Source: Ginglymostoma cirratum
Lineage: Eukaryota
DNA: 64,000 bases
NCBI GenBank assembly: GCA_024137785.1
Contig: JAHRHZ010000022.1
Location: 32,096,511-32,160,510 of the forward strand
Reading direction: 5' to 3'
A model generated the notes under the pieces. The model was given only the letters and a program-made list of their open reading frames with translations, ran no database searches and was not told where the DNA came from. The translations under genes and the position numbers were made by a program. Position 1 is the first letter of the stretch. Each line of letters opens with the position of its first letter. Positions 2,898 through 62,700 of the stretch are shown here, piece after piece.

Positions 2898-3402
2898 TTT
2901 CTGAANNNNNNNNNNNNNNNNNNNNNNNNNNNNNNNNNNNNNNNNNNNNNNNNNNNNNNNNNNNNNNNNNNNNNNNNNNNNNNNNNNNNNNNNNNNNNNN
3001 NNNNNNNNNNNNNNNNNNNNNNNNNNNNNNNNNNNNNNNNNNNNNNNNNNNNNNNNNNNNNNNNNNNNNNNNNNNNNNNNNNNNNNNNNNNNNNNNNNNN
3101 NNNNNNNNNNNNNNNNNNNNNNNNNNNNNNNNNNNNNNNNNNNNNNNNNNNNNNNNNNNNNNNNNNNNNNNNNNNNNNNNNNNNNNNNNNNNNNNNNNNN
3201 NNNNNNNNNNNNNNNNNNNNNNNNNNNNNNNNNNNNNNNNNNNNNNNNNNNNNNNNNNNNNNNNNNNNNNNNNNNNNNNNNNNNNNNNNNNNNNNNNNNN
3301 NNNNNGACTTTCCTGCTCCTCTGATGCTGCCTGGCCTGCTGAGTTCCTCCAGCTCCACAATGTGTTATCTCTGACTCCAGCATCGGCAGTTCTTACTATC
3401 TC
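2898..3402 (+). mobile_element. PLE-terminus-derived short element interrupted by an assembly gap
   Basis: TTTCTGAA|gap|GACTTTCCTGCTCCTCTGATGCTGCCTGGCCTGCTGAGTTCCTCCAGCTCCAC...ACTATCTC. Same family as 28293-28522; the gap covers the hammerhead motif position. Confidence 0.75.
2906..3305. other. Assembly gap (400 N)
   Basis: Run of exactly 400 N. Confidence 0.99.
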
Positions 3403-4804
3403 TTGTGGTCAATGAGACATTTTACCCATGTGTGAAGTACCATTCTGTTAATGTACTTGTATTGGAGTTTTTTACCAAAACAAAAGTTTTTTTTTAATTC
3501 TGTATGTCACTTTAGCTGTTTCTGTTAATCCTTTCTGCATTCCTTTATGCAACATTCTACCCATGATTTAAATCCCATTTATATTTTCTGTTTCATACTT
3601 CCTGCTTTGAGCTCTGATGACTACATTTTACTTCCAGACTGAGATCCACACTCGGGACTCAGAAGTGGATGTGGCAGGACCAAGAGGAGATTCTTGAGGA
3701 GATGGCTGATTAAATGACAGCATCTCAGACCACTTTCCAATTCAGGACAGTGGGCAGACACCATAGCTGCGAGGGCCAATGGGAGTGCGCAACATTCTGG
3801 GCATGTATTGGCTCCAACCACATGGTGGGGCTGTAGCAGGGGGTGGGGTGGTGTGGAAAGGCAGCATCTGCCATCTGGAAAACCCAGACATCCTGTAAAC
3901 AATGGCATTTTGATTTTCCCAATAGGCTGCTCATTACCGGTGGACAGGTAGCTATCATTGCCCAGAAGCAGATTCTCTGAAAAGAAGCGATGCAAGCAGA
4001 CTTGCATGCAGTGAGGAATTGCCGACTCACCTGCCTCAAATCCCAACCGGGCCTCAGGATGAAAATTCTGCTCAGTAAGAATTCTTCAATCCCAGATGCC
4101 CAGTAGTTCACTGATTTTTTTTTTCCCTACTCATATAGAGCCCAGAACCCTTGGAGAGATTGCCACTCTGGATCAGATGTTGGATTTCTTCCAACTTTGC
4201 ACTCAAAAACTCGTAAAATCTTGGGAGCAGTTGTCAGCGAGGTGAACAACAGCTACTGTTCTTTTTCTGTTGCTTACAATGTCCAGGCCATTGCATTGGA
4301 TATGTAACAGACTTCCCAGTATCTGAAAAAAAAGATATTTAACTTTTGAGTGTTTCTGCATGGGATTTTCCCGTGAAACTTGAAACTCCTTATTTTGTTC
4401 AATTGCAAATCAGACAGCTTTGTATTTACAGCTTTTTAATATAAAAGTATTAAGATGTTGAGAAATTGTATTATTACATGTCACTTTAAACCGTGGCACA
4501 GGTCTGTTGGCGAATTTATGACTATAAGCAGCACTGCGAGTTATTGCTTGCATTGTAAATTTAGCATCAACTCAAACCATTCTTGGCTCTGCACCAGTGT
4601 TAAACTTGTGCTGTATAAATCAGGTGTTGCGGCTTTTACAGTGTCTTACCCTGCTTTTCTCTGGATTTATACTGTACAGCTGCAGTATTTTTTAGGCATT
4701 TCTAGGGCAGGCTTTGCAGAGTCACCTGCTTCACTCAGAGACTGGCGACCCTTTGGAATTCTCTTCTCCAAAGGACTGTGGAGGCTGAGTCGCCAGATCT
4801 GTTG

Positions 4805-5464: not shown

Positions 5465-5555
5465 AGAGATAACGCAGTGTGGAGCTGGAGGAACACAGCA
5501 GGCCAGGCAGCATCAGAGGAACAGGAAAGCTGATGTTTCGGGTCGGGACCCCTCT
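5465..5555 (-). mobile_element. Single truncated arm of the PLE-terminus short element
   Basis: GAGATAACGCAGTGTGGAGCTGGAGGAACACAGCAGGCCAGGCAGCATCAGAGG...TTTCGGGTCGGGACCC. The minus strand gives stem II GGGT-CCCG-ACCC followed by GAAAC-ATC. Confidence 0.75.
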
Positions 5556-18334: not shown

Positions 18335-18598
18335 TCATACAATCACGGAATCCTTACAGTGCAAATGGAGGCCATTTGGCCCATCATGATTGCACCAACC
18401 CTCCACAGAGCATCCTACTCATACTTACACTATCCCCATACCTTTGCATTTCCCACGGCTAACCATCTAGCTTGCACGTCCCTGGACATCACGTGGCAAT
18501 TTAGCATCGCCAATCCACCCAATCTGCATATCTGTGAATTGTGGGAGGAAACCGGAGCACCTGGAGAAAACCCACACTGACACGGGGAGAACAGACAG
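18335..18598 (-). mobile_element. HE1-like V-SINE, 5' truncated
   Basis: Reverse complement of TTCTCCCCGTGTCAGTGTGGGTTTTCTCCAGGTGCTCCGGTTTCCTCCCAC (V-domain) plus CR1-like tail. Confidence 0.8.
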
Positions 18599-20194
18599 TA
18601 TATTAAGGGGGGACTAACCTCTCTTTAACTCCTTGTATTCTTGGTTGGACTTCATAGCTAGTGCTAACACAGAATTTAGGACTGATAGCCTTACGAGTGA
18701 TTGTTAGTATCCCATGACATCAGAAAAGGACAAGAAAAACACTCCAAGGATTACTATGCAAATAATCAAGATCCAGGAACATAAATACATTAAAAACAGA
18801 AAATGCTGCAGGTTCTTGCAGGCCTGCCAGTATCTGTGGAGAGAGAAACAGACTTAACAAGCAGAATTTCCTAGGCAAACATGGGCTACGGTGAAAGATT
18901 TGTGAGAATGTCATGAGAAATGGAGTGAGACCTTTCCGGACTCGAGTACAACAAGTGGCACGCATTTTCCAACTAAGTTCTAGAACATGGAGGTGAGATT
19001 TTTGCCAGTGAGTGGCAAGAGATCAATTGACTGGGATTATTACTCATTACACTTAAAATGCAGATTCCCATTTTACCATCTGCAGGACAGAAACTAGGTG
19101 CTGAGAATCCCCCACATGAATGTCGGTGTGTGGACTCCAGCTTACTGCTTGCTCTTTGTGACATCCAGCTTGCACACCTGGCACCAATGTCTCAGGGCGT
19201 GCTTCAGATTAGCGGCTGTGCTCAGCCCATCTCCATATGCACTGCCGTCCATCTGCCCCTTTCATTGTAATGCTTCTGCAAAACACTGCGCATTCAGGGA
19301 TAGGCACCCAACTCAATGATTGGACCAGTCTGCACCCTAGGGCTACTTGCTTGCCTTTTTAGTGATCACTGACTGAGTGCCTACCAAAATGCTAACAGCG
19401 TCCCTGCCTTGTCAGTCAGTGCTGCCCACCGCCTCCCCCGCCCCCAATCCACAACCCTCCTCCCACCTCAGCCAGAGCTAACAGATACTCAGTACTTCTG
19501 ACTTCATTTGCCTTGCATTGTAGACACAAAGCTAGGAAGTTTGTCATGGATGTCAACAGTCGTCAGTCAGGGAGATGGACAAGTTGCCGACCTGCGTCAT
19601 GCTCTGTCAATCTCGCATCTGTATCATGTGACAGTAGCACAAGAGCCAAACATGTACTGTGTGTGTTTCAAGCAAAAGATCATACCTCAGGGTCTAAGGG
19701 GAGTGGTCCTCAGTCATAACCAGAGGGACATCAATCAATCAGGGGTCCAGGCACTGTAAGTCAAGGACAACCTCTAATTTCAGTCCAGGAGCTTGGGCAC
19801 AGTCATTCACCCTGCTGGTGTGGTCAGGATCACAATCTGTTCCTCGCAGAAAGTGAGAAACTTAGAGTTGGGCAGCCCAGCACCCACCTTGTCTCATTCT
19901 GTTTATCACAGCCTGTTCTTTCTTGATGTAAGAGAAAAGAAGGGACTGAATGAGATGTAAATCAGCTGTTTGTGCTAGTGCAGGTGGGAGAAAGGTGGTG
20001 AAGTGTCCCGAGACAATGAGTGGCAAGTGCAGCGGCCAGAACAGGTTAGTTTTGTGGTTAAATTGGGTGGATAAGAGTAAATGAAGGAAGATATTGCAGG
20101 GAATAGAGAGAGAGTGGTAAAGCATGTGCCCTGGTGGGAAATGTGTTCAGTAGCAGAGAAACTGTGTGTGAGGTATTAGAGAGAAGGTGGTGAC

Positions 20195-26314: not shown

Positions 26315-26440
26315 CACAGGAGTTGAAACGTTAAACTCTGCTTTCTTCCCAGAGATGCTGCCAGAGCTGCTGAGTTTCATCAGCAATTTCTGTTTTTGTT
26401 TCAGATCTCCAGCATCCGCAGTTCTTTGTTTTATTTTAGG
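26315..26440 (+). mobile_element. PLE-terminus fragment (older subfamily)
   Basis: GAAACGTTAAACTCTGCTTTC...AGATGCTGCCAGAGCTGCTGAGTTT...CAGATCTCCAGCATCCGCAGT; similar to the reverse complement of 55795-55930. Confidence 0.65.
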
Positions 26441-27459: not shown

Positions 27460-27825
27460 TTGCCTTCCAGTCCCTCAATTTCTCTAATTTCAGCTTCTCT
27501 CTTATCTTTGTATTTAAATTGCTCATGGTTTTACTCCTTATTATCTTTGTAACCTCTTCTAGTGCAACCCTTCACCCCAGGACTGTCATTTAGCTTGGCA
27601 CTGATCTCTTGAACATCCCCTGAACTTTTATCCAACCATTGTTGTCTTGCCATCAACCATCTACTCGGTGCTTGTTTCATAGTCTGGAATTCCTTAATTA
27701 ATCCTTTCATTTCTCTACCATCTCTTCTCCTTTATAAGCTATATTAAATACTGTCTCTTTGCTTTCCAGCTATGAAGTGACTTGGACTATTTTTCTATCT
27801 TGAGATTACAAACAATGCAAGTTAT
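27460..27825 (+). mobile_element. L2-like LINE 3' end, decayed
   Basis: Pyrimidine-rich CTCTTATCTTTGTATTTAAATTGCTCATGG...TCTGGAATTCCTT...AATGCAAGTT, resembling vertebrate L2 3' ends. Confidence 0.5.
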
Positions 27826-28350
27826 TCCTGTGCTGCACACACTTAGATAAATCAATATACCATTTTTTTGTTGCATAACAACAGGCAATAAAGAACACGC
27901 CAGGCTTTCTCACATAAATTGGTCATGTAACTTGATTTAAACAAAAGGGGGTAAATGGAAATGAAACTGGATCGATTCTACTGTGACCAAGTGATACAAT
28001 CTGCCAGATTAGAATCAAAGTTATGTTCACCCAAGCATTTCTGAAGAATGGATAAGCCCCAAAGGCAACAAATCTGGTTTGAAATTCTAAACCACCTTAT
28101 TTGGAATTGGATTCAGCAGTCATATCTTATGGTTGGGTTTCAGTGCTTAACCCTCTGACAAAGATTGCATTACAACCTCCTCTTCCTGCTGCTCCTCCTC
28201 AAGAATGCCTCATTCTAAAGTTGTATCATAGACAATAGATTACACTAAACAATTTGAACTTACCAAGGTTATATGGTGACCAGTACCCTGCAAAGTATAG
28301 TGTAGAGCTGGATGAACACAGCAGGCCAAGCAGCATCAGAGGAGCAGGAA

Positions 28351-28384
28351 AGCTGACGTTTCGGTCGAGACCCTTCTTCAGAAA
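28351..28384 (-). ncRNA. Minimal type I hammerhead ribozyme motif (stem II one base short)
   Basis: Minus strand: CTGAAGA-AG-GGT-CTCG-ACC-GAAAC-GTC-AGCT. Confidence 0.55.
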
Positions 28385-28393
28385 TTTTTTTTT

Positions 28394-28428
28394 TTTCTGA
28401 AGAAGGGTCTAGGCCCGAAACGTCAGGT
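28394..28428 (+). ncRNA. Minimal type I hammerhead ribozyme motif
   Basis: CTGAAGA (28397-28403)-A-GGGT-CTAG-GCCC-GAAAC-GTC; predicted cleavage after 28424. Helix III is the palindromic ACGT with no loop, as in PLE hammerheads. Stem I is weak (UUU/AGG). Confidence 0.65.
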
Positions 28429-28559
28429 TTTCCTGCTCCTATGATGCTCCTTGACCTGCTGTGTTCATCCAGCCCCATGCTTGTTATCTCGGATTCTCCA
28501 GCATCTGCAGTACCTTTATCTCTACTACTGAAAATATCCCTGCTTCCTGAGGAGCTTTT

Positions 28560-28830
28560 TCTAAAATTTATTCACAGGATGAAGGCATCACTGGCTAGGC
28601 ATAAGAATGGCAGATTCCATTCCCTAAAGGATATTAGTGAACCTGATGGGTTTTTCCCAAACATTGGCAATTGTTTTTGGTCATCATTTGAGCCTTAATT
28701 CCAGATTTTTAAAAATTCATTGAATTCAAATTCCGCCATCTGCTGTGGCAGGATTTGAACCTGGGTCCCACAGAACATTCCCTGGATGACTGGATTAACA
28801 GTCCAGCGATAACACTAGGCCATTGCTACT
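28560..28830 (-). mobile_element. tRNA-derived SINE (bipartite family)
   Basis: Minus-strand B box GGTTCAAATCC; 3' tail GCCAGTGATGCCTTCATCCTGTGAATAA. Confidence 0.75.
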
Positions 28831-29599
28831 TGCCTGAGCAAATACTAGTGCATAACTGCCGTAAAGTGAGGGTGTCAAAACTAGTGTCAAGGTAGCAGAC
28901 AATCACATAAATAAGCTTTACATTGTGTTCAGCTGCATTCTAATGGAAAGTTATTTCATTCTACTTATGAAAACTTGAAATGGGCGTAGGTGCCCATATA
29001 GCCTAATGTACTAACAATAATTCCTGAAACATTGGACAAAGTTGTAACATCAAAAGTTGTCACATCAAAAGCGTGCAATACTTAATATTTATTGACATAT
29101 TGATGAAAGAAATAGTCTAGTAAATAAATCATTTATGACCTTCTCGATGCTCCGGTAGACTTTTGGATGCCAAATTAATATTTATCCCTATTGCTGTTTG
29201 AAAAGATCAAATAGTTTAAAAGTGTTTATGATCGTCTTGGTATTGACATTTGCAGATGTATCCCCATTGTAGAATTTACTTGAAAATCTGACTTAAAGAG
29301 TCAACATATTTCCCAATGGCAAGTTGGTAACCAAGTCAGTTTTCCTCATACCCAATTAGTTCTGCTTTAGTTTGTAAAGTTAGGTGGTTAAGTAAGTGTG
29401 GCTGTACTTCCTGAGCTGTAAATATATCTCTCTCAAGTCTCCACAGGTATTGTATTTCCTAAAACCCAGCAAATAAAAAGAAAATAAAAGTGCAATCTAC
29501 TATGGAATAGCCACAGAATATTATATCTACTATAATTTGCAATAGATCCTTACACCCAGCTGTGCTTAAGCCAGACAATAAAACGAAAAAATTGATATA

Positions 29600-37705: not shown

Positions 37706-38469
37706 CATTTGTAAAATAACCCAGGATTAAATTGTTCCCTGCTTTGCTGTAGTTATATGGTGAGATTCTATCACTAACAAAAAGTCAAAGCAGACGTAAC
37801 GTTTCACCCTACATGATAATGCACACCACAGGTATTCTGACGAGACTTCATCTGATGATACCTTAAACTATAAGAGACACCTAAGAAAAAATCTGTGATA
37901 GATTGGCTACAAAACCTTCAAAAGTGGTTTGTGAAATCACTAATAAATATTGCGGAGGATTTTTAAGTCGATTGGGGATTCACGCCTCAACACCTGATGA
38001 AGTATAACACAATCCATCCCTGCCAACCACAAGCCCCACAGTCATTTAGTATTTTAAGGAGAATGAATCAGTTAAAGACGGAACTTATGCCTCTCAATTC
38101 CACAACTTGTTATGCTGGAAGCTTTGTCATCCCCAGCAGCACTCATGGTAGCAATGGCCCAGACTGCAAACACAAGCAGTCCTCAGGTTCAAAGCCCCAG
38201 AATTCAGGGCGAGGTTGCGGTTAGTCGTGGGGCAACTTAAAACACTGAGAAGAGATGAGGGCCATCTCTTGGAATGAAGTGGTTTGGGGTGTTGATGGAG
38301 AGGTCATCAGTTAAGGGGTAAATGGGGAGTGGTATCAGACCTGGAAAAAGGATACCCAATGTGGAAATGGCACTGTTTGTTGAGCTTGCAAGTGTTGGTT
38401 TGTAGGCATGATGGCTGCCTGCTTATTAAAGGAATGGGATTTTCCCTCAGTTCATTGTGTCGTTGCAGG

Positions 38470-40200
38470 TTTAGGCTGCTTAAGACACACAAAAGCAATG
38501 TACTTTCACATCCTATGCTATCTATGATTGGTTCCACACAAAATGAACCGGCCAAATATTTGAGCACGTGGCTGCAACCTTTTTTGAATGAGTTTTCCAC
38601 ATAGACTGTGAAGGATTCTTTCACATTTGCAAAAAACAAACAAGACTTGCATCTTAAGAGCAGTATCGTGTCCATATGCTCTTTCAACATTGCTTGCCTA
38701 TACTTTCAAGGAAGTCATAGAATCATACACTCCACAGTGCAGAAGGAGGCCATTCAGCTCATCAAATCCTCACTGACCTACCCCATCCCCATATCTCTGC
38801 ATGGGGTTTTTACCCTGGCTCACCCAGCTAACCTGCACATCCTTGGACACTACAGGCAATTTTCAGCATAGCAAGTTCGCCTAATGTGCACATCTTTGGA
38901 GTGTGGGAGGAAATTGGAGCATCCAGTTCAAACACACGCAGACATGGGGAGAACGTGCAAACGTCACACAGACAGTCACCAAGGCTGTCAACCCAGGTCC
39001 CTGATGCTGTGAGGCAGCAGTGCTAACTACTGAGCCACTGCAAGTCATCGACATTTGCATTGGGTCACTATGTCATGACAATCTAGAAGTGCCACTGCTC
39101 TCTGAGTATATTTTTATAGAACTTATGAATTTAACAACTCATGCAAATGATTTCAGTTTTAATGCTACTATGTACAGCCAACTAAGTGGTGTTTTGATCC
39201 TCTATAGGCCCAACTCTTGCTAATATTTTCATTGGTTACCATGAGAACCATGTGTTCGATTCAGTGACCACTAACCTTCACCTGCTGGTCTATGTCTGGT
39301 ATATGGATGACATACTTATGATCTTTGAATCTGCAGTTGCATCAAAGAAACTATTTACACAGCTGAACAAACGCTAACCTTGCTCAAGTGACGGCTGCAC
39401 TAGAGCAATCAAATGATCTCCCTTTCCTCTAAGTGCTAGTTATTTGCCAGAGTCTGTGCCACTATTTCCTGAAACTTCCATTCACTGGTCAGTATACACA
39501 TTTGGATTTCTACAGTTCCACATGCTACAAGGTCAATCTTATTGGTAACCTTGTGAGTATAACCCTTGCCATCTGCTCACTGTGTAAGCTAGAGATAAAA
39601 TAGAGCATGTCAAAACTATCCTGCCTGACAGTAAGTTTCTGGATCAAATCATCGAGCAGTGCATATCACACAAACTCACGGAAGAGCATATGACCACCAT
39701 GATTGGTCCTGAAACTTGCCCAGTCTATCTCAGATTTTCATGAAATTTGAAGGTGTTTCAAAAATTTGAGCGACAGGTGAAGCAAACCATCTCATGCTAC
39801 TACATTGCAGTTAAAAACAAGAGTGGTATTTGTCACTAGAAGGTTGCTGCCATCAAGGCAAAAAGACATTCAGCCTGCCACAAAGTTGAGTAATGTGGTA
39901 TATGAGTTTCAGTGTCAGTGCAATACCAGGTATATAAGTTGTAAATCTCAGTGACTGGAGCATTGTATGAAACAGCACACCTATTTGACTGTCTGCAGCA
40001 GGCAACATGCTGACAGTGTTTGGCCAGTCTGTGCTTACAAAACTCAGAGCATTGTATCCAACACCATGTGAACCTACTACTGAACAGCATTTTCTAAATA
40101 ATCCAGACTGTGCTAAGAATTACACCAGAGACTAATTTAAGATTGAGTCAGGCTTACGGTGCGTGTAATTTGCATGTACTTGAAGTTACATATGTCCACA
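38470..40200 (+). mobile_element. Decayed Penelope-like retroelement: reverse transcriptase + GIY-YIG endonuclease
   Basis: KTHKSNVLSHPMLSMIGS..AKYL..LQP; VKDSFTF..CSFNIACLY; GPTLANIFIGYHE...YVWYMDDILMIF (~39291); SNVVYEFQCQCNTRYIS (~39890, GIY-YIG-like). Multiple stops and frameshifts. Confidence 0.85.
38719..39041 (-). mobile_element. HE1-like V-SINE inserted in the PLE RT
   Basis: tRNA head GCAGTGGCTCAGTAGTTAGCACTGCTGCCTCACAGC plus V-domain; flanked by AAGTCAT at 38712-38718 and 39042-39048. Confidence 0.9.
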
Positions 40201-46197: not shown

Positions 46198-46814
46198 AAC
46201 AAGCATGGGGCTGGATGAACACAGCAGGTCAAGCAGCATCATAGGAGCAGGAAAACTTGACGTTTCGGGCCTAANNNNNNNNNNNNNNNNNNNNNNNNNN
46301 NNNNNNNNNNNNNNNNNNNNNNNNNNNNNNNNNNNNNNNNNNNNNNNNNNNNNNNNNNNNNNNNNNNNNNNNNNNNNNNNNNNNNNNNNNNNNNNNNNNN
46401 NNNNNNNNNNNNNNNNNNNNNNNNNNNNNNNNNNNNNNNNNNNNNNNNNNNNNNNNNNNNNNNNNNNNNNNNNNNNNNNNNNNNNNNNNNNNNNNNNNNN
46501 NNNNNNNNNNNNNNNNNNNNNNNNNNNNNNNNNNNNNNNNNNNNNNNNNNNNNNNNNNNNNNNNNNNNNNNNNNNNNNNNNNNNNNNNNNNNNNNNNNNN
46601 NNNNNNNNNNNNNNNNNNNNNNNNNNNNNNNNNNNNNNNNNNNNNNNNNNNNNNNNNNNNNNNNNNNNNNNNNNAACTTGACGTTTCGGGCCTAAACCCT
46701 TAGGCCCGAAACGTCAAGTTTTCCTGCTCCTATGATGCTGCTTGACCTGCTGTGTTCATCCAGCCCCATGCTTGTTATCTCGGATTCTCCAGCATCTGCA
46801 GTACCTTTTATCTC
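46198..46814. mobile_element. Perfect fold-back PLE-terminus short element with TSD
   Basis: Identical inverted arms meeting at GGGCCTAA-ACCC-TTAGGCCC; flanking direct repeat TCAAATACTCCACAAC at 46185-46200 and 46813-46828. Confidence 0.85.
46275..46674. other. Assembly gap (400 N); the flanks overlap
   Basis: AACTTGACGTTTCGGGCCTAA is present on both sides of the Ns. Confidence 0.97.
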
Positions 46815-47454
46815 AAATACTCCACAACCATTGTTTCTCCCTTATCTATTCTACTTGTTACATTCACAAAAAAAAACCAGTAGATTTGTCAAATATGATT
46901 CCCCTTTCGCATATCCACATTAACTTTGTCTAATCTTGTTGATATTTCCTAATGTCCTGTTATCGCACCTTCATAATATACTTCAAATTTCCCCTGTTAC
47001 TAATGTTAAGCTAACAAATCTGTAATTGCCAGTGTTTTCCCTCCATCTTTTTAAAAATAGTGGGGTTACACTTTCCACCTTCCAAGCTGGTGGAACTGTA
47101 CCAGAATTAAAAGAGTTTAGAAAGATGGCAGCCAAATCATTCTCTATCTCTGTGTCTATCTGCTTGAGTACCTTGGGATTTAGATTATCAGCCTCAGGAG
47201 ACTTATCAACTTTCAGTCCTATTAATTTCTCCAGCACACTTTTACGTATTCTAATTTCACTTAATTCCTCCTTTTGAATCCTTTCAGTCTCATTCCCTGA
47301 CATATGTTCAGATGAAATTAATTCTCCTTTGGAGCAATTTAGTTTTTGCATTTTTGAGCTATATCTGTGTGGATAACTAACTTTAATAGTAGGCAAATAC
47401 ATGCAATGGCATCAAGCTAAATGAAGCTCAAAAGTCTGTAGATTTCAGTTCTGG

Positions 47455-49520
47455 TAATTGGGGACATGATGACATAGAGGCATTGTCACTGGGCTTGTAA
47501 TTGCAAGACGTGAGCAATGTTCTGGGATTCACGGTTCAAATCCCAAAATATCTCATGGTGGGATTTGATTTTTGTAAAAGATCTGGAATGGGAAATCTAT
47601 TGCTGATCATAAGAAACATTGTCATAAAAACCGTTCGGTTCATTAATGCCCTGTCCTTATCTGGTCTGGCGTGCATGCTTACCTATGACTCCACACCTAC
47701 AATAATGTGATTGATTCTTACTGCCCTCTGAGATAGCCCAGAAAGTCATTCACTAGTATCGTTCCACTTAAACACCTCAGCAATGGAATGAAACCAGATA
47801 GACCAGCCATGATCGACTTAGACACCAGAAAAGAAAATGGCAAACTCAACCCTGTTGACCCTGGAAAATCCTCCTTATCAATATGTGGGGACTTTTTTTT
47901 CTAACAGACTTGTCAGTCATTCTCAGAAAATTGTGCCTTACACAATCTGTGTGGAGATAAAGTTCTGTCTTCACAATCAGGATAGCCTCCATGGTGCTGT
48001 GTGACAACATTACTGCGCTTTAAACAAATCTAGCTGCTCAAGGCTGGGCATACACGAGGTGCTATGGGCCATCAGCAACAGCAAAATTTTATTCAATCAC
48101 AATCCGCAACCTCATGGCCTGGCATATTCCCAACATTACTATGACAATCAAGCCTAGGGATCCACCTTGGTTCAATGAAGAGATGCAGGAGGGCATGCCA
48201 GGAATAGCACCAGGCATACCTGAAAATGAGGTATTAACGTGATGAAGCTACAAAGTAAGACAACTTGTGTGCCAAACAACATAAGCAGCAAGTGTTAGAT
48301 AGAGCTTGGCAATTCCACAACTAACAGATCAGATCTAAGCTCTACAATCCTGTCACATCTCATTGTGAATGGTGGAAGACAATTAACTAACTCGCTGGAA
48401 CATGAAGCTCCACAAATAACCCCATCTGCAATTTTGGGGGAGTCCAACACATTGATGCAAAAATTAAGGTTGAAATGTTTGCAACAATCTTCAGCCAGAA
48501 GTGCCAAGTGGATGATTGATCTCAGCCTCCTCCAGGGGACCCAGTGACAGAGATGCCAGTCTTCAGCCAGTTTGATTGTCTCTACATGATATCCAGATTA
48601 AGCTGAAAGCACTGCATACGACAAAGGCCAGCAATTGTGCTTAAGAGGCTCAGAGTCTAAAGGTATGTAACTTACCTTGTGATTCCCAAAGCCTTTCCGC
48701 CATCTACAAGGCAAAGTTATGAGTGTGATGGACTACTCCCCACTTGCCAGGAGGAGTACAGCTCCAACAACACTCAAGAAGCTTGACACTGTCCAGGATA
48801 AAACTACCCACTTGATTGACGCCACTTCCATTAATGTTCACTCCTTTCACTGTCGACCCTCAGCGGCAGCAGTGTGTATCATCTGCAATATGTAGTCCAG
48901 GAATTTGGGGGAGGCACGGTGGCTCAGCAGTTAGCACTGCTGCCTCACAGCACCAGGGACCTGGGTTCAATTCTTCCCTCAAGTGCTCCAGTTTCCTCCC
49001 GCAGTCCAAAGATGTGCAGGTTAGGGTGGATTGGCTATGCTAAATTGTCTATAGTATCCAGGGATTTGCAGGCTCGGTGGATTAGCCATGGGAAATGCAG
49101 GGTTAGGGTAGGGCCGTGGGTCTGGGTGAGATGCTGTTTGGAGGGTTGGTGTGGACACGATGAGCTGAATGGCCTGCTTCCTCACTGTAGGGATTCTATG
49201 AAATTCACCGACGCTACTTAGAAGGCAACTTCCAAACCCAAACCCCATCTAGAAAGACAAGAGCAGCAGTATATGAGAATGCCACCTTTTTAATGACCCC
49301 TGCAAGCCACTCACTATCATGACTGGGAAATATATCACTGTTCCTTCAGTGTCAATGCGTCAAAATCCTGGAACAGCCTCCTAATGGCATTCGAGGTTTT
49401 GGTACGTCACATGGATTGCAGTGATTCAAGAAGGCAGCTTACCACTACCATCTCCAGGGTAACTCAGAATGGGCGAGAAATGTTAGCCGTACCAGTGACC
49501 CATACATCCTATGAATAAAC
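47455..49520 (+). mobile_element. Internally deleted CR1/L2-group LINE with a tRNA-like 5' head
   Basis: B box GGTTCAAATCCC (47533-47544); ORF remnants KSSLSNMWG, TIKPRDPPWFNEE, FATIFSQKCQVDD, SVMDYSPLA..APTTLKKLDTVQDK; 3' tail CCAGTGACCCATACATCCTATGAATAAA. Confidence 0.7.
48910..49201 (+). mobile_element. HE1-like V-SINE
   Basis: GGCACGGTGGCTCAGCAGTTAGCACTGCTGCCTCACAGCACCAGGGACCTGGGTTCAATT...GGGATTCTATG; nested in the LINE. Confidence 0.9.
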
Positions 49521-50834: not shown

Positions 50835-52680
50835 AGAGCGACTCTTATCAAAGACAAAAAAATGCCATCAAACAATGCTAGGGGGAGCACTTAATAGACC
50901 TCCTCAACCTGCGATAGGGTTAGAGTTAACCAGGGCTCTGTTGTCGATCCGAGCATCTTTGAACGCATCCCGCAACATGCTACATGCCACGAGCGCAGCA
51001 ACACCCCAGTCCTGCACAAAGTATAGTCAGCCGTCTGCCAGCTTAACAACATCGAGGGAGCCGACAATATCCTCGCTGAGGCATTGAAGAGGCGAAGGAC
51101 TCCTGCCTGTCTGCCTTATTTGGAAGGTGGAGAGCATCCTAGGACAACTCCAAGATGCCTCAGTTGTGAACATTGTCAAACAAGGGAATAAGTCTGACTG
51201 TGGTAACGACAGGGGTATCTCCCTTCTGTCGACAATTGGAAAAGTCATTGCCAAGTTCCTCCTCACCCGCCCCCTCCCTGTGGCTGAGGAACTCCTCCAG
51301 GAGTCACAGAGTGGCTTCCTGCCACGGAGGGGCACAATGAACATGACATTCACAGCGCAACAGCTGCAGGAGAAATGCAGACAAAAGAACCTACCCTTGT
51401 ACATGACCTTCTTTGACCTTACAAAGGCGTTTGATGCCTTCAATCCAGAATCATTATGAAGCATCCTTCTCCGCTTTGGCTACAAAACAACGTTTGCCAC
51501 CATTCTTCACTGCTCCACAACGATGTGGGAGTCGTGGTAATGACAAACGGCTCCATCACTGACCCATTCCCCGTTCGGATCGGTGTCGAGCAGGGCTGTG
51601 TAATCACTCCAACACTGTTCTCGATCTACCTTGCTGCAATGCTTCACCTCACCGCCAACAAGCTCTCCACTGGAATGGAGCTAACTTACAGAACCAGCGG
51701 GAAACTATTCAACCGCTGCTGCTTTCGAGCCAAAACCAAAGTCACCCCAACCAGTGTCATCGAGCTGCTGTATGCAAATAATACTTGAGTACGTGCAAAC
51801 TCAGAGGACCAACTCCAGACCACCGTCAGCACCTTTATGGAAGCACATGAGAGCACGAGTCTCACCCTGAACATCCGCAAGATGAATGTCCTCCACCAAC
51901 CTGGCTCGGCACAGCGGAGTAAACCCCCATCATCAAGGTCCAGAGGGAGGCCTTGGAGAACGTTGACTATTTCCAATACCTCAGGAGTGTCCTGTCGACC
52001 AAAGCAGCTATTGATGAAGAGATCCAGCACCGCCTCCAGTGTGCTAGTGCAGCCTTTGACTATTTGAGGATTTCAAGAGCATCAGATTCTACACTGAGAT
52101 CATGGTTTACAGAGCGGTGACTGTTTCCGCTCTCCTTTTATGGCTCTGAGACATGGACTGTCTATAGCAGACACCTCAAGGCACTGGAGCAGTGCCACCA
52201 ATGCTGCCTGTGCAAGACCCTGCAAATAGGCCAACATCCCGAGCACCAAGGCGCTGACCAGCCTTGTTCAGCTACGATGGGCTGGGCACATCGTCCACAT
52301 GACTGACATGAGACTCCCCTGGTAGGTGCTCTATTCCCAATTCCAAAACAGCAGGCAAGCCCCAGGTGGACAAAGGGAGATGCTTCAATGATACCCCCCA
52401 GGCCTCACTGGCGAAGTGCAGCATTTCCACAGTCACCTGGGAGTCACTGGCTCAAGACCGTCCAGAGCAGAGGAGGACCATCCAGAAAGGTGTCAAGCAG
52501 CTCGAGACTTGCCGTCAGCTAAAAGCGCGCTGCTAGCCCAATGCCCCACCAACCCCTTCCCATGACCTTCTTCTGCCCCAAGTGTGGCAGATCCTGCAGA
52601 GACTGCACAGCCATCGACAGCCTCACCCTGAGAGTGGAAAAGGGTCATCCTTGTCTTTGAAGGGCCGCCAATGATAGTGA
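50835..52680 (+). mobile_element. RTE-clade LINE, 5' truncated and decayed (RT + C-terminal zinc-finger-like motif)
   Basis: EHLIDLLN; GNKSDCGNDRGISLLSTIGKV...QSGF...QLQEKCRQKNLPLYMTFFDLTKAFD; GVEQGCVITPTLF; LLYANN (decayed YADD); CPKCGRSC near the end. Confidence 0.9.
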
Positions 52681-53394
52681 TTACAAAAATCAATGAATAT
52701 AATTAATTCAAATTAAACCTTGATTGTCATCATGGTACCATCTCTCACAAAAGCATAATAAATACAATTTACAGTATAAAGATAGAGGATAGAAATGTGT
52801 TTTTAATTGATATATACTTTGAAATGATCAAGAAGTACTATATGGAAATTAATATGTCCATTAGGAAGAATATAAGTACTACTTCTCAGTTAACTATCCA
52901 AAATACACATTTTAAGAAGAGTAGAATGGCAATTAATTGAAGGGCAATAAATGAACAATTAAAATAAGATTTGAAGATGCTGGAAAACTCAATGGGTCTG
53001 GCAGCATTTATGGAGTATGAAGCAGAGCTAACATTTCAGACAATATCCTGGCTCAGAGGGGCTCTGATGAAATGTGATATTGCTATAAAAATGGTCTGTG
53101 GCCGATATCTGATCAAACATAAGCGGAAAATATGAGAGTGAGGATGAACAAGTCGAAGAATCATAGAAGTGTTACTTTGAGGAATGCTATTCGGACCATT
53201 GTGTCAGCACTAGCTCCTGAACTGAACATATCACCCAGTCCCTCTCTCCTGTTTTCTTCCCCATACCTTTGCAAATTATCCTTATCCATATAATCATCTC
53301 TCTTGATTCGGTATAAGATAAAAGCAGTGAAGAACAGAACTTCTTTAGAGTGAATACTCCTGGAAGAAAACTGACAGAGAATTTAGATAAATTC

Positions 53395-53725
53395 GAAAGC
53401 AAAATGCCACAGATGATGTAAATCTAAAAACAAAAAGCCAGAGCACACTGTAAATACTCACCAGTTCAGGCAGAATCTGTTCAGAAAGAAACATGTTTCA
53501 GGTCAATGACCTTTCATCAGAATTTCTAAAAGGGCTATAAGATCTAATTTAAAGATACAGGCAACTGAGAAATGGAAATGATAAAGTTCCACAGGATGTA
53601 TAATTACAACAGCAAGGAATTCTGATGAAAGGTCTTTGACCTAAAACATCAACTTTGATTTTTCTCTCCACACATGCTGCATGACGTGTTGAGTATTTTC
53701 TGTTTTTATTTCTAATTTCAGCAAG
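53395..53725. mobile_element. Older inverted pair of PLE termini with two decayed hammerhead motifs
   Basis: Minus 53520-53493: CTGATGA-A-AGGTC-ATT-GACCT-GAAAC. Plus 53622-53650: CTGATGA-A-AGGTC-TTT-GACCT-AAAAC-ATC. Confidence 0.7.
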
Positions 53726-55794: not shown

Positions 55795-55930
55795 AGTAAA
55801 ACAAAGAACTGTGGATGCTGGAGATCGAAAACAAAAACAGTAATTGCTGGAGAAAACTTAGCAGGTCTGGCAGTGTCTGTGGGAAGAGAGAAGAGTTAAT
55901 GTTTTGAGTCTGGTGACCCTTCATCAGAAC
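55795..55930 (-). mobile_element. PLE terminus with decayed hammerhead motif
   Basis: Minus strand: GTT-CTGATGA-A-GGGTC-ACCA-GACTC-AAAAC-ATT-AAC (stem I GTT/AAC). Confidence 0.7.
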
Positions 55931-58748: not shown

Positions 58749-59046
58749 ACATGGTGGCTCAGTGGTTAGCATTACTGCTTCACAGTGCCAGGGAACCGGG
58801 TTCAATTCCAGCCTTGGGTAGCTGTCTGTATGGAGTTTGCACTTCTCCCTGCGTCTGCATGGATTTCCTCCCACAGTCCAAAGATGTGCAGGTCAGGTGG
58901 ATTGGCCAAGCTGAATTGCCCATAGTGTCTATGGTGGGAAATGCAGGGATAGGGTAGGGGGTGGGTTAGGTTGGGATGCTTATCAGACAGTTGGTGTGGA
59001 CTCAATGGGCCAAATGGCCTGCGTCCACGCTGTGGGATTCTGTGAA
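58749..59046 (+). mobile_element. HE1-like V-SINE
   Basis: TGGTGGCTCAGTGGTTAGCA...CCGGGTTCAATTCC...GGAGTTTGCAC...GGGATTCTGTG. Confidence 0.9.
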
Positions 59047-59186: not shown

Positions 59187-59777
59187 ATAATAGGTACTGC
59201 AGATGCTGGAGAATCCGAGATAACAAGGTGTGGAGCTGGATGAACACAGCAGGCCAAGCAGCATCATAGGAGCAGGAAAGCTTGACGTTTTGGGCCTAGA
59301 CCCTTCTNNNNNNNNNNNNNNNNNNNNNNNNNNNNNNNNNNNNNNNNNNNNNNNNNNNNNNNNNNNNNNNNNNNNNNNNNNNNNNNNNNNNNNNNNNNNN
59401 NNNNNNNNNNNNNNNNNNNNNNNNNNNNNNNNNNNNNNNNNNNNNNNNNNNNNNNNNNNNNNNNNNNNNNNNNNNNNNNNNNNNNNNNNNNNNNNNNNNN
59501 NNNNNNNNNNNNNNNNNNNNNNNNNNNNNNNNNNNNNNNNNNNNNNNNNNNNNNNNNNNNNNNNNNNNNNNNNNNNNNNNNNNNNNNNNNNNNNNNNNNN
59601 NNNNNNNNNNNNNNNNNNNNNNNNNNNNNNNNNNNNNNNNNNNNNNNNNNNNNNNNNNNNNNNNNNNNNNNNNNNNNNNNNNNNNNNNNNNNNNNNNNNN
59701 NNNNNNNGCCCAAAACGTCAAGCTTTCCTGCTCCTATGATGCTGCTTGGCCTGCTGTGTTCATCCAGCTCCACACCT
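59187..59777. mobile_element. Fold-back PLE-terminus short element with TSD (gap in the centre)
   Basis: Identical inverted arms; flanks TGATCTAAAAACGGTG (59171-59186) and TGATCTGAAAACAGTG (59778-59793). Confidence 0.85.
59308..59707. other. Assembly gap (400 N)
   Basis: Run of exactly 400 N. Confidence 0.99.
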
Positions 59778-62700
59778 TGATCTGAAAACAGTGTGTTCTG
59801 TTGATATGCTACATTGGTGTATCTTTTGCAATTAATTGTTAGATACAGCCAAGACAAAGCAGAGACAAAAGCGGATTGCTAGCAGTGAATTACATCAAAA
59901 ACTCTGAACCAGGACCACAGACTGGTTCATACCACAAAGAACCAGAAGTGATCATTTGGAAAAGTACCACAAAGATAAATCCATACCAACGCAGTAATAG
60001 TGAACTTTTATGAAACATTAAAGTACTGTATGTAGTGTTAGGCTTCCCTGTGTAGGAAAGATATTGACACAGTAAAACACAGAGTATCTTGAAGGTTGTC
60101 TGAAATGAGGAAAGAAATGTGAAACTAGGTTTTCTTTGTTGGAATAGTGCAGATTACATGTCAATATGATAGAAGTGTTCAAAATTATGAAATGTTTGTT
60201 CAAGGTAGATACAAACGAAACTGTTTCCAGCCATTAAGGGATGTTAGGTATACACAAGATTAAACGTAAGACATTTCAAGCAGAGTAAGAGAAACATTCT
60301 TGGCACAGTGAGGTTGATGGTAATCCTAACTGCCTGGTGGAAACAGAGGGGCAAGCAGTTATGTACCTAGCAAAACTCACCCATTGGAAATCATATCTCA
60401 GTTAACATTAAGGCCAGAAGGTTAAGAAGGAGAGTTGTAACTCATCAAGGGTTAATATTTGAGGGAAAAACCATATCAGCATTCAAGATTAGATAAGGTA
60501 CATGATAAAGGCAAAATGCATGAATGGAAACTGTTTATATATGTTTGGAACTACATACGTTGTGATGTGGCAAGACTGGTGAGGATTTCCTGTATTTTAT
60601 ATGGTGAGGATTTCCTGTATAACGTCTATGTACATATTTCAATATCTGTATTAATTAACCACATTTTAAGGCTTTCTGAATAGCTGTAACCTTATTGTCC
60701 TGGCAGCTATTTAGTTAAATTTCACTGCATCTACGTTCTGTCTATAATATCCTTCTTACAAAGGGGTACCCAGATCTGTTCGCAATATTCCAATTGTTGC
60801 TAATTACAAATGTCTTGCAGAAATTCAGCACCACTCTGTTTTTATATTCAATATCCTTAAAATGCAGAATCTCCATTTGTTTTTTATGCCCTTTGCTAGT
60901 TACGCTTCCATCTCTAAATATCTATTCAGCTGAAGCGATAAATCCCTGTTCCTCCATTTTAAAAATAAATTCATTGTACTATTAGGTCTATCCCATTTTT
61001 GCTGGAATAGATAACATGTTGTAAAACTGTGAATTTCCAGAAGTGACCCTGGTAACTCTATCTTTAGAGAGCTGTCCTCCATCCAGAGGATCTGAAATTG
61101 AATCCCAGCCTTTAAAATGACATTCAAACCTGATTATCTTCATTGGACAAGTTTCACGAATGTTCGTCTGGATCACTAAATGAAGCACTTAACCATAGTG
61201 GAGCACACTGTGTCAGGAAAAGAAAGACAGGCAGGAACATTTCCATCCCTCAATGGAACAACTGAATAGTAGAGTGACACGGGTCGTCCCTGTGGAGATA
61301 TTCGTTGTCTGTACTGCCCTGCACATTATCTGTGTGTACGGCCACATAGGCAGCAGAGGAGATTTTGGGGGAAGGGGCAGCACAGTTAAGGGAAGTAACC
61401 ACATTTATCAGGCAATCAGAAACCTTTAAAAATATGTTATCCTATCAAATGTTCAGGGTAATATTGGAAAGAAACAGGTAGCATGAAGCATTGTGCAGGC
61501 TTTTTTTTTATGTTTTGAGCCTGTCCCTTGGAATATGTGTATCTTCTTAGATACAAATTTCCATCTCGTTTCATGTCAATATTTTCCACAGTTATGAAAT
61601 AATGGAAGATCTCGGCAGTAAAATTTTGAAATGTGTGAAAAAGAAGCTAATACCTAAGAAGATTCTTCTAGAATCAACAGTTTTGAATAACTTTGCTGTT
61701 CAGGGTTCATTTTTTTTTGTTTTAAGTCCCTACAATGCCAGTGTTGCTGATATTTCGTGTTAATTCTGAGGTCGAGGGATTGTTATTCTCTCAGCTGCAA
61801 TGAAGACATTTAGAGCCTTCTCTCTGGGCCTTTCAGTCTGCATCGACAAGCTTTGTGTAAAGACAGAAGAAAGAAAGGGCAGAGTTTACTGCACTACCAG
61901 TGGCGAGTGATTTGCTGGGAGGTGTTGTGATGAGTATCTGTAGATTGTCTGAAATGAGCTTTGGAGTTTCTCCATTTATTTAGGTCGCAGGTCACCCTTT
62001 TATCCTTTATTTGTCCCATAAAGTTATAGCGTTTCCAGATCCATTATCTACTTGTGTATGAGGATTTATCTACATCAAGTAGTAAGGTTGATCTTGTTTA
62101 CCTCTGGAGACTGGCAGTTTCCAATGAGCTAGGAAGAAAATTGGAGGTGGCATCTGCCAAAGATGCTCAATATAAATAAAATTCAGGCCACTGATAATCC
62201 TCACTATACATTTCACATCCACAGCAATGTGCTGGCACCATGTCAACTACGTTTTGAAACCTTGTTAATGTACCGGTAGGATAATGGAAATTTCACATGC
62301 ATTGACATAATTAATGAAGAGGCAGGCAGTGTGCTCAACCAATTAACACCACAGGGAAAAATAAAATTGGCCCCTTTTTTTATATGTTATGCCAGAGCTA
62401 AGGACTGTATCACACAGCAAATAAATGTAGAAGCTTTTAATGAGCTGCGGGATCAGGCTGCGTAACCCGGAAAGTATGTTGTGTAAACACTGCCAGCTAT
62501 TTAAACTGTTAGGCGTAATTGATGAGCTTGACTAAAATACTTGGGGAGAAGGAAAAAAAGATCGTTAGGTAGGGAGACATGCATTTGTTAAGCAGTACTC
62601 TTCTGGGGCGAGATGACACAAGAAAACATTGATTTTTTTTCTGACTTAACCTAAAATATAGGCTCTGCATTTAGCTTTGAAATAATTTAACACAAATTGT

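Follow-up and report, generated by a model that had tools for sequence, protein, structure and literature searches.

What kind of element carries a hammerhead ribozyme motif on each strand, back to back, in about 220 bp of DNA that has no ORF? Such a feature lies near 28.3 kb in the window (by which we mean the whole 64-kb stretch of DNA that we analyzed). A first-pass annotation described it as a non-autonomous element of 230 bp, similar to a retrozyme or a SINE, that is mobilized by Penelope-like elements (PLEs) and whose RNA might switch between a ribozyme and a long hairpin. We consider it very probable that two pLTR 3' ends of an endonuclease-positive (EN+) PLE, both heavily 5'-truncated, stand head to head here as an inert pair, in a shark-type genome. 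The PLE origin is thus retained, and we infer it from the anatomy of the pair; the discrete non-autonomous unit is not. What is new here is a shark example of a PLE insertion pattern that was already described, as pairs of minimal hammerheads on opposite strands have been known since 2014. In the literature, we found no paper on this shark family itself; repeat libraries lay outside the search, and the family may well be catalogued in them.

Anatomy of the fold-back and its relatives

The locus has two inverted arms (about 28300-28385 and 28394-28479) on opposite strands around a run of 12 T (Table 1). The arms pair with each other in blocks: 28307-28351 with 28429-28473 (45 nt, 93% complementary), 28349-28364 with 28415-28430, and 28363-28384 with 28394-28415. 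For the + strand of 28285-28535, the predicted folding energy is -140.7 kcal/mol (z = -15.9), which was equalled by none of 200 shuffles. Arm pairing, folding, and the motif scan (see below) all confirm that this is a non-coding element with inverted arms, with CTGAAGA, stem II, GAAAC, and GTC on each strand.

The first-pass annotation placed the arms back to back across a T run, which holds (T12 at 28385-28396), but it set the start at 28293 and overlooked that the arms are unequal. Similarity to the rest of the family begins at 28299-28300, as judged by BLAST within the window, and loose read ends agree. On the other side, the right arm runs past its first TATCTC (28490) for another 32 nt, up to a second TATCTC (28522). 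The left arm lacks this tail, as do the short arms at 46.2, 59.7, and 5.5 kb. The fold-backs at 46.2 kb and 59.2 kb also have the tail on one arm only.

Table 1. Features of the 28.3-kb fold-back and related copies in the window
Feature	Coordinates	Strand	Description
Left arm	28300..28385	-	Short pLTR end that lacks the tail and is truncated 4 nt upstream of CUGA; of the older subfamily type
T12 junction	28385..28396	+	Three T beside CUGA are family-like; the remainder stands in for the family's upstream C-rich sequence
Right arm	28394..28490	+	5'-truncated pLTR end that reaches to the first TATCTC; of the younger subfamily type
Optional tail	28491..28522	+	32 nt, on one arm only, with the second TATCTC at its end
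Minimal hammerhead core	28397..28424	+	CUGAAGA 28397-28403, extra A, stem II 28405-28408/28413-28416, GAAA 28417-28420, palindrome ACGU 28420-28423, C17 at 28424
Minimal hammerhead core	28355..28381	-	CUGAAGA 28381-28375, stem II one base short, GAAA 28362-28359, C17 at 28355
Related fold-back	46200..46816		Fully complementary arms (77/77); target duplication of 16/16; each arm truncated within stem II, without CUGANGA
Related fold-back	59189..59779		Left arm has the tail; target duplication of 14/16; each arm has G12>A; central 400-N gap
Older related family	53411..53700 (end approximate)		Two decayed cores, one per strand, separated by about 100 nt
Solo tail-less arm	5466..5555	-	5'-truncated within the core
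Tail-bearing arm	3306..3403	+	Behind a 400-N gap; TTTCTGAA directly before the gap
Solo tail-bearing arm, older related family	26319..26440	+	Without CUGANGA
Solo tail-bearing arm, older related family	55796..55929	-	G12>A
Two weak old relatives	52964-53048 and 18793-18849	-	nhmmer E = 7e-6 and 4e-5; the first retains a spaced-out CTGATGA

Within the window, BLAST found 8 arms in 5 close loci. Using nhmmer with an HMM built from 12 arms, we found 15 matches (and 0 in a reversed-window control), which correspond to 8 clear loci, older relatives included, and 2 weak ones. Either count bears out the earlier estimate of at least 8 family members in 64 kb. Four of the 8 clear loci are fold-backs (28.3, 46.2, 53.4, and 59.2 kb), and the other four are solo or one-sided (3.3, 5.5, 26.3, and 55.8 kb). 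The inner ends vary: at 28.3 kb, they lie 3-4 nt upstream of CUGA; at 46.7 kb, they lie within stem II; and at 53.5 kb, they are separated by about 100 nt. The 5' ends vary among copies as well, and the sole A run of the 28.3-kb element is the central one. Simple patterns for the A and B boxes of pol III promoters had no match on either strand of the element. TRF reported 4 arrays in the window, none of which involves the family, and there are no tandem same-strand hammerheads.

All three of the window's assembly gaps, each of exactly 400 N, fall inside copies of the family (2906-3305, 46275-46674, and 59308-59707). The PLE insertion pattern explains the position of all three. At 46254-46720, the 21 nt before the gap recur exactly after it; this overlap makes it probable that the gap is spurious and that the real element is a hairpin whose loop, of about 4 nt, lies within stem II. 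We considered self-priming from stem II at this junction and rejected it on inspection, as the fit fails in the sequence that follows the loop. At 59189-59779, the arms are 72/72 identical and share G12>A, yet the two copies of the target duplication (TSD) differ at 2/16 positions (Fisher p = 0.03). This suggests either arm-to-arm homogenization in the palindrome or a collapse by the assembler.

Another abundant repeat (28555-28830) begins about 30 nt to the right of the 28.3-kb element. Relatives of it lie at 13.5 kb, and each of the four runs that we mapped (see below) covers it at high depth. Copies of one further repeat family are at 48915-49200, 58750-59036, 38860-39040, and 18340-18590; these look like a shark tRNA-derived SINE.

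A gene model from the whale shark starts with a 30-residue translation of the repeat (77% identity), which places the family in sharks. Close to the start of the tail (28480-28495, and also 26395-26405 in the 26-kb copy) is a stretch rich in pyrimidines, which terminates in AG both in the consensus of the family and in the 26-kb copy and resembles a splice acceptor. We speculate, from this acceptor-like tail start and the whale shark gene model, that exonization of the repeat may be common.

As for proteins, Pfam found no GIY-YIG domain in any of the window's 233 ORFs of at least 62 amino acids. The only Pfam matches to reverse transcriptase (RT) in the window were two RVT_1 pieces at 51.1-51.8 kb, apart from any copy of the family. 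These pieces (51088-51785, + strand; E = 1.5e-9 and 0.0023) belong to a decayed LINE-type element. There is also a broken ORF at 38440-38700 (+ strand) that has no Pfam match, corresponds to unnamed eukaryotic Atlas clusters at 0.93-0.96, and is not joined to any copy of the family. We take its translation to resemble the RT region of Penelope/Poseidon elements. A protein search with the translation of one arm (in one of its three frames) scored 0 of 7 candidates and gave no linked PLE protein. A profile-library search with an arm translation had 2 matches, one of which was a gene model without a PLE domain. We rejected a match of the arm translation to a bacterial-type repeat protein, which was aligned through 15 short stretches. 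Pattern scans of viral contigs, metagenome contigs, and prokaryote genomes found 0 loci.

Predicted hammerheads within the arms

The pattern CTGANGA-N8-38-GAAAC matches at 28397-28421 (+ strand) and 28381-28358 (- strand); there are 5 matches in the window, versus 1.25 expected by chance. Since both motifs are followed by GTC, we predict cuts after 28424 on the + strand, which is the same site that the first-pass annotation expected, and after 28355 on the - strand. The + strand core is complete (CUGANGA, GAAA, NUH, and a stem II with G10.1-C11.1). The - strand core is complete too, but its stem II has one base fewer than that of the closest relative, the 5.5-kb copy. There is hardly any helix I: on the + strand, the U run gives one U-A and two U-G pairs, and on the - strand, two pairs are followed by a mismatch. 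Judging from the mapped reads, a helix I of 4 pairs could form in the main subfamily of organism A (see below); the known length of 4-5 bp is not reached in the 28.3-kb copy. A check against Rfam's hammerhead models, which had been proposed for this locus, gave no match (E ≤ 1 over the window or E ≤ 10 for the + strand motif). The motif and stem II support the proposal of a minimal type I PLE hammerhead in which a palindromic ACGU replaces helix III.

Across 7 arms, stem II is paired in 34/34 cells. This includes one two-sided change, from G-C to A-U, in both arms of one locus. If the stem II partners are slid against each other, the overall pairing falls from 84.8% to 47.5% or less. The covariation is weak (its score was reached by 12/500 shuffles, and the 7 sequences are related), and a fifth stem II pair would close a loop that is too short to form in the 28.3-kb element. 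The pairing of stem II across the 7 arms indicates that the hammerhead motif is a real and structurally constrained part of the source elements.

The inserted copies tell another part of the story. A whole core with an NUH cleavage site is present in only 2 of 12 arms, and 3 more are hidden by gaps. (We read these counts by eye and dismissed the automatic flags on both 53-kb arms as false matches.) G12>A is found in 4 arms, and the CpG of helix III is broken in 4/7. Judging from these changes, the decay of the inserted copies looks neutral.

In equilibrium folding predictions, opening the core with stem II formed costs 38.6 kcal/mol (+ strand) or 40.9 kcal/mol (- strand) in the whole element, versus 5.9 or 4.9 kcal/mol in single arms. 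With the arms head to head, each strand's transcript carries one hammerhead, and the antisense of that hammerhead is transcribed first. The two hammerheads are never on one RNA, so a dimer in cis is impossible. The first-pass annotation rightly described a transcript from either strand as one hammerhead plus its antisense, but the proposed switch does not survive, given the opening costs and the early antisense. Instead, the folding model implies that the ribozyme motifs are almost certainly locked inactive within the hairpin, that is, in a lock rather than a switch. A read-through RNA of the fold-back would meet the antisense first and form a long hairpin, so the core would stay closed and the copy would decay neutrally.

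When we cofolded two copies of each core, we obtained alternative duplexes and no hammerhead dimer, which says little, as the model cannot represent the core. In the mapped reads, there is no pile-up of starts or ends at any place, including the cut sites; this is a weak test, as polyA libraries are fragmented. By analogy with Penelope in Drosophila (PMC3681739), a small-RNA or dsRNA role for the hairpin is plausible.

Two subfamilies in one fold-back

We mapped four of 24 runs to 27800-28900 at 86% likeness: raw polyA RNA and RNA-like contigs from organism A, and contigs from organisms B and C. In the raw polyA RNA, 57,655 of 12,895,792 records (about 0.45%) map to this 1.1-kb stretch, and nearly all of them are on the family arms. 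Neither of the organism A runs has any depth on the unique flanks (27800-28280 and 28836-28900); the raw run was read to about 24%. Thus, transcription of the 28.3-kb locus was not seen, though the family is very common in transcripts. According to loose read ends, the family continues upstream of 28394 into C-rich sequence, not into a T run, and is heterogeneous beyond the inner end. Among the 15 joints listed, of 1008, 12 link a left arm that breaks off at 28324-28364 with a right arm that begins at 28394-28402. One listed head-to-head joint (28350 to 28394) has 63 RNA reads with 47 starts. Because the sides of the joints are short (21-39 nt) and were mapped at 86% likeness, these joints are suggestive only, and some may be artefacts. 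A contig from another species spans 28316-28415 with 12 differences and has the same back-to-back junction. The variants give no evidence of RNA editing: A>G plus T>C make up 46/146 of the variant places in the raw RNA, versus 53/222 in the two contig runs from other species (Fisher p = 0.12).

The two arms at 28.3 kb differ at 13/88 aligned columns; in at least 9 of these, both arms have an allele that also occurs in another copy in the window. The right arm, including its tail, is identical to the copy at 46700-46818 at 112/117 columns. The left arm resembles the 5.5-kb copy and a type that is common in organisms B and C. The subfamily of the right arm is marked by an A at 28426 (the 28.3-kb element itself has G there). 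This A is found in 4847/6686 and 4918/6667 of organism A's reads (about 72%) and in under 1% of the contig depth in organisms B and C. Also, in a contig of single-copy depth from organism C (27863-28328), the outer 29 nt of the left arm are contiguous with the unique flank. Since this contig extends from the unique flank to 28328, within the left arm, with 24 other letters and without gaps, the left arm predates the species split with organism C.

To score TSDs, we used 3000 random flank pairs as the null. There is a TSD of 16/16 at the 46.2-kb copy (null fraction 0.0003) and of 14/16 at the 59.2-kb copy (0.0007). One other locus has a marginal TSD (10/13), and the remaining four loci that we tested have none. 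The 28.3-kb element has no significant TSD: the whole element gives 9/15 ungapped (0.49) or 12/16 gapped (0.09), and the candidate for the right arm alone, at 12/18, is not significant either (0.07). Arms from two subfamilies, without a bracketing TSD, imply that the 28.3-kb copy is a composite and was not made by folding back one template. Either of two events would give the simplest history: the end of a younger pLTR landed where an older copy has its AT-rich inner end, or two copies underwent deletion or conversion between them. PLEs are described as tending to insert into or beside earlier copies (PMC6765202), and the PLE enzyme from an anole prefers an ATT site near its own pLTR junction (PMC11167929).

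How would the arms themselves form? From published work on PLEs, we infer that the PLE protein of this family would nick AT-rich DNA. Reverse transcription would then start inside the PLE RNA, at one of two neighboring sites about 65-100 nt downstream of the hammerhead cut, and the choice of site would yield an arm with or without the 32-nt tail. Synthesis would often proceed for about 80-130 nt and halt at the hammerhead or close to it; another short copy would then be joined in inverted orientation. The hammerheads would be passengers of the pLTR.

The abundance of the family in polyA RNA, the joint with 63 reads, and the recurrence of the junction in another species would also fit a discrete, non-autonomous fold-back that is transcribed and re-mobilized as a unit by PLE proteins, with a hairpin/ribozyme switch; pLTRs can act in trans, as described for PMC3846280's elements. 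We consider such a mobile unit highly improbable. The junctions vary, solo arms exist, and the 28.3-kb arms belong to two subfamilies with no shared TSD; there is no tandem array of hammerheads and no A or B box, and opening the core costs about 40 kcal/mol. Nor do the organism A runs, the raw one read to about 24%, show depth on the unique flanks or a pile-up of starts or ends. On these grounds, we set aside the retrozyme-like or SINE-like reading. In general, the retrozyme, SINE, and MITE identities each fail on a defining feature: tandem same-strand repeats, pol III boxes or a fixed 5' end, and equal and fixed TIRs, respectively. The long inverted arms, and matches to Rfam's microRNA families such as mir-1303 (E = 2e-4), could point to a MITE or another TIR derivative of a DNA transposon, or to a microRNA precursor, but this is extremely improbable. 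The arms are unequal, some are solo, the outer ends vary, and the TSDs are 16 bp, which disfavors the DNA-transposon TIR that the first-pass annotation named as an alternative. All 4 of the Rfam microRNA matches are far under the gathering scores (40.6 versus 107 bits at best). PLE fold-back hairpins explain both the mimicry of microRNA precursors and the entry into gene models.

The mixture of subfamilies raises two other explanations for the 28.3-kb copy. It could be a single insertion from two templates, in which a PLE dimer primed both cut strands on different RNAs and the short cDNAs were joined head to head. The shared alleles at most of the differing columns would be expected, the PLE of the anole acts on both strands, which it cleaves and extends, and a dimer has been modelled for it (PMC11167929), and there is a 15-bp stretch in the position of a TSD. 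However, the match of this stretch is not significant, and it has decayed more than would fit arms that have about 2 private changes each. Also, the right-arm class is dominant in organism A and nearly absent from organisms B and C, while the left arm is common to organism C, which indicates two insertion times; and both of the TSD-bounded sister copies have identical arms. So a single two-template insertion at this locus is very unlikely. As a general source of head-to-head PLE ends, with mixed-subfamily pairs as its fingerprint, two-template priming by a dimer of the PLE protein is likewise very unlikely. Alternatively, the composite could be an assembly misjoin or a misfilled gap within a repeat hairpin, which would concern the 28.3-kb copy only and not the family. 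Other, gapped copies of the family did break the assembly; no read or contig shown spans the whole locus; and mismatched arms without a TSD are what a misjoin would leave. But the right arm has private letters (at 28449, 7879/7927 and 7774/7845 RNA reads carry another base), so it is not a collapsed consensus, and both unique flanks are present in organisms B and C. A misjoin is unlikely. We prefer a composite of two truncated PLE ends of different ages.

Comparison with known elements

The candidate sources of inverted pLTRs are self-priming, two-template priming, and repeat insertion, and the papers cited here leave this step open. With short and frequent copies (64 kb contain 4 fold-backs) that fall into subfamilies, this family lends itself to a census of arm pairs, junctions, and TSDs, which could discriminate between these sources. 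If two-template priming were true, then the many tiny, datable pairs in sharks would make the inverted-pLTR step testable by counting. The by-product would be a large pool of hairpin RNA, comparable to inverted Alus.

PLE insertions are described as strongly 5'-truncated, often with an adjacent inverted copy and a 30-40-bp tail at one end, and as hard for short-read assembly (PMC8557442). In rotifers, PLEs have head-to-head pLTRs with an optional 31-bp tail and a TSD of 8-10 bp (PMC3846280). Compared with these complex insertions of EN+ PLEs, our family has the same head-to-head arms, a tail on one arm, TSDs at the sister copies, assembly gaps at the hairpins, and a hammerhead inside the pLTR. 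It differs in that the 28.3-kb element is only about 220 bp, lacks an ORF, and combines arms of two subfamilies without a TSD around them; at the sister copies, the TSD measures 16 bp instead of the 8-10 bp of rotifers. PLEs have also expanded in the introns of the whale shark (10.1101/443036).

Minimal hammerheads were defined in a 2014 study (PMC4209133), which described dual motifs 100-700 bp apart on opposite strands in Schistosoma. In that account, most of the dispersed minimal motifs are probably truncated PLEs, monomers do not cleave, and dimers have low activity. Like the metazoan PLE hammerheads in that study, the motifs here have CUGANGA, one extra base, G10.1-C11.1, GAAA, and a loopless, palindromic helix III. 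Unlike them, the cores are 15 nt apart instead of about 100-700, stem II has 4 bp instead of 7-8, and helix I has just 2-3 weak pairs.

In Poseidon of Anolis carolinensis (PAc), two internal starts of reverse transcription define the tail, and both strands are cleaved and extended (PMC11167929). The same study describes the PAc hammerhead as protein-assisted and dispensable for insertion, and reports no RNA-seq reads ending at the cut. As in PAc, our arms end tens of nucleotides 3' of the cut (66 and 98 nt here; one PAc start is at 85-92 nt), two alternative ends define the tail, and reads do not pile up at the cut site. In contrast, the ORF of PAc starts at stem II, whereas here there is no ATG at that position and no ORF is linked.

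Inverted-repeat copies of Penelope in Drosophila yield siRNAs (PMC3681739). Read-through RNA from our fold-back would likewise form a long hairpin, although transcription of the 28.3-kb locus was not seen. (Further papers for comparison are PMC2377424, PMC6155905, and PMC8455134.)

Finally, the non-LTR retrozymes of animals are tandem direct repeats and are reported in one chondrichthyan (bioRxiv 10.64898/2026.07.22.740005). Our element is like the retrozymes described there in being non-coding, related to pLTRs, and equipped with a type I hammerhead. But those retrozymes have at least two same-strand hammerheads in tandem, while the shark element has an inverted pair, with one hammerhead on each strand.
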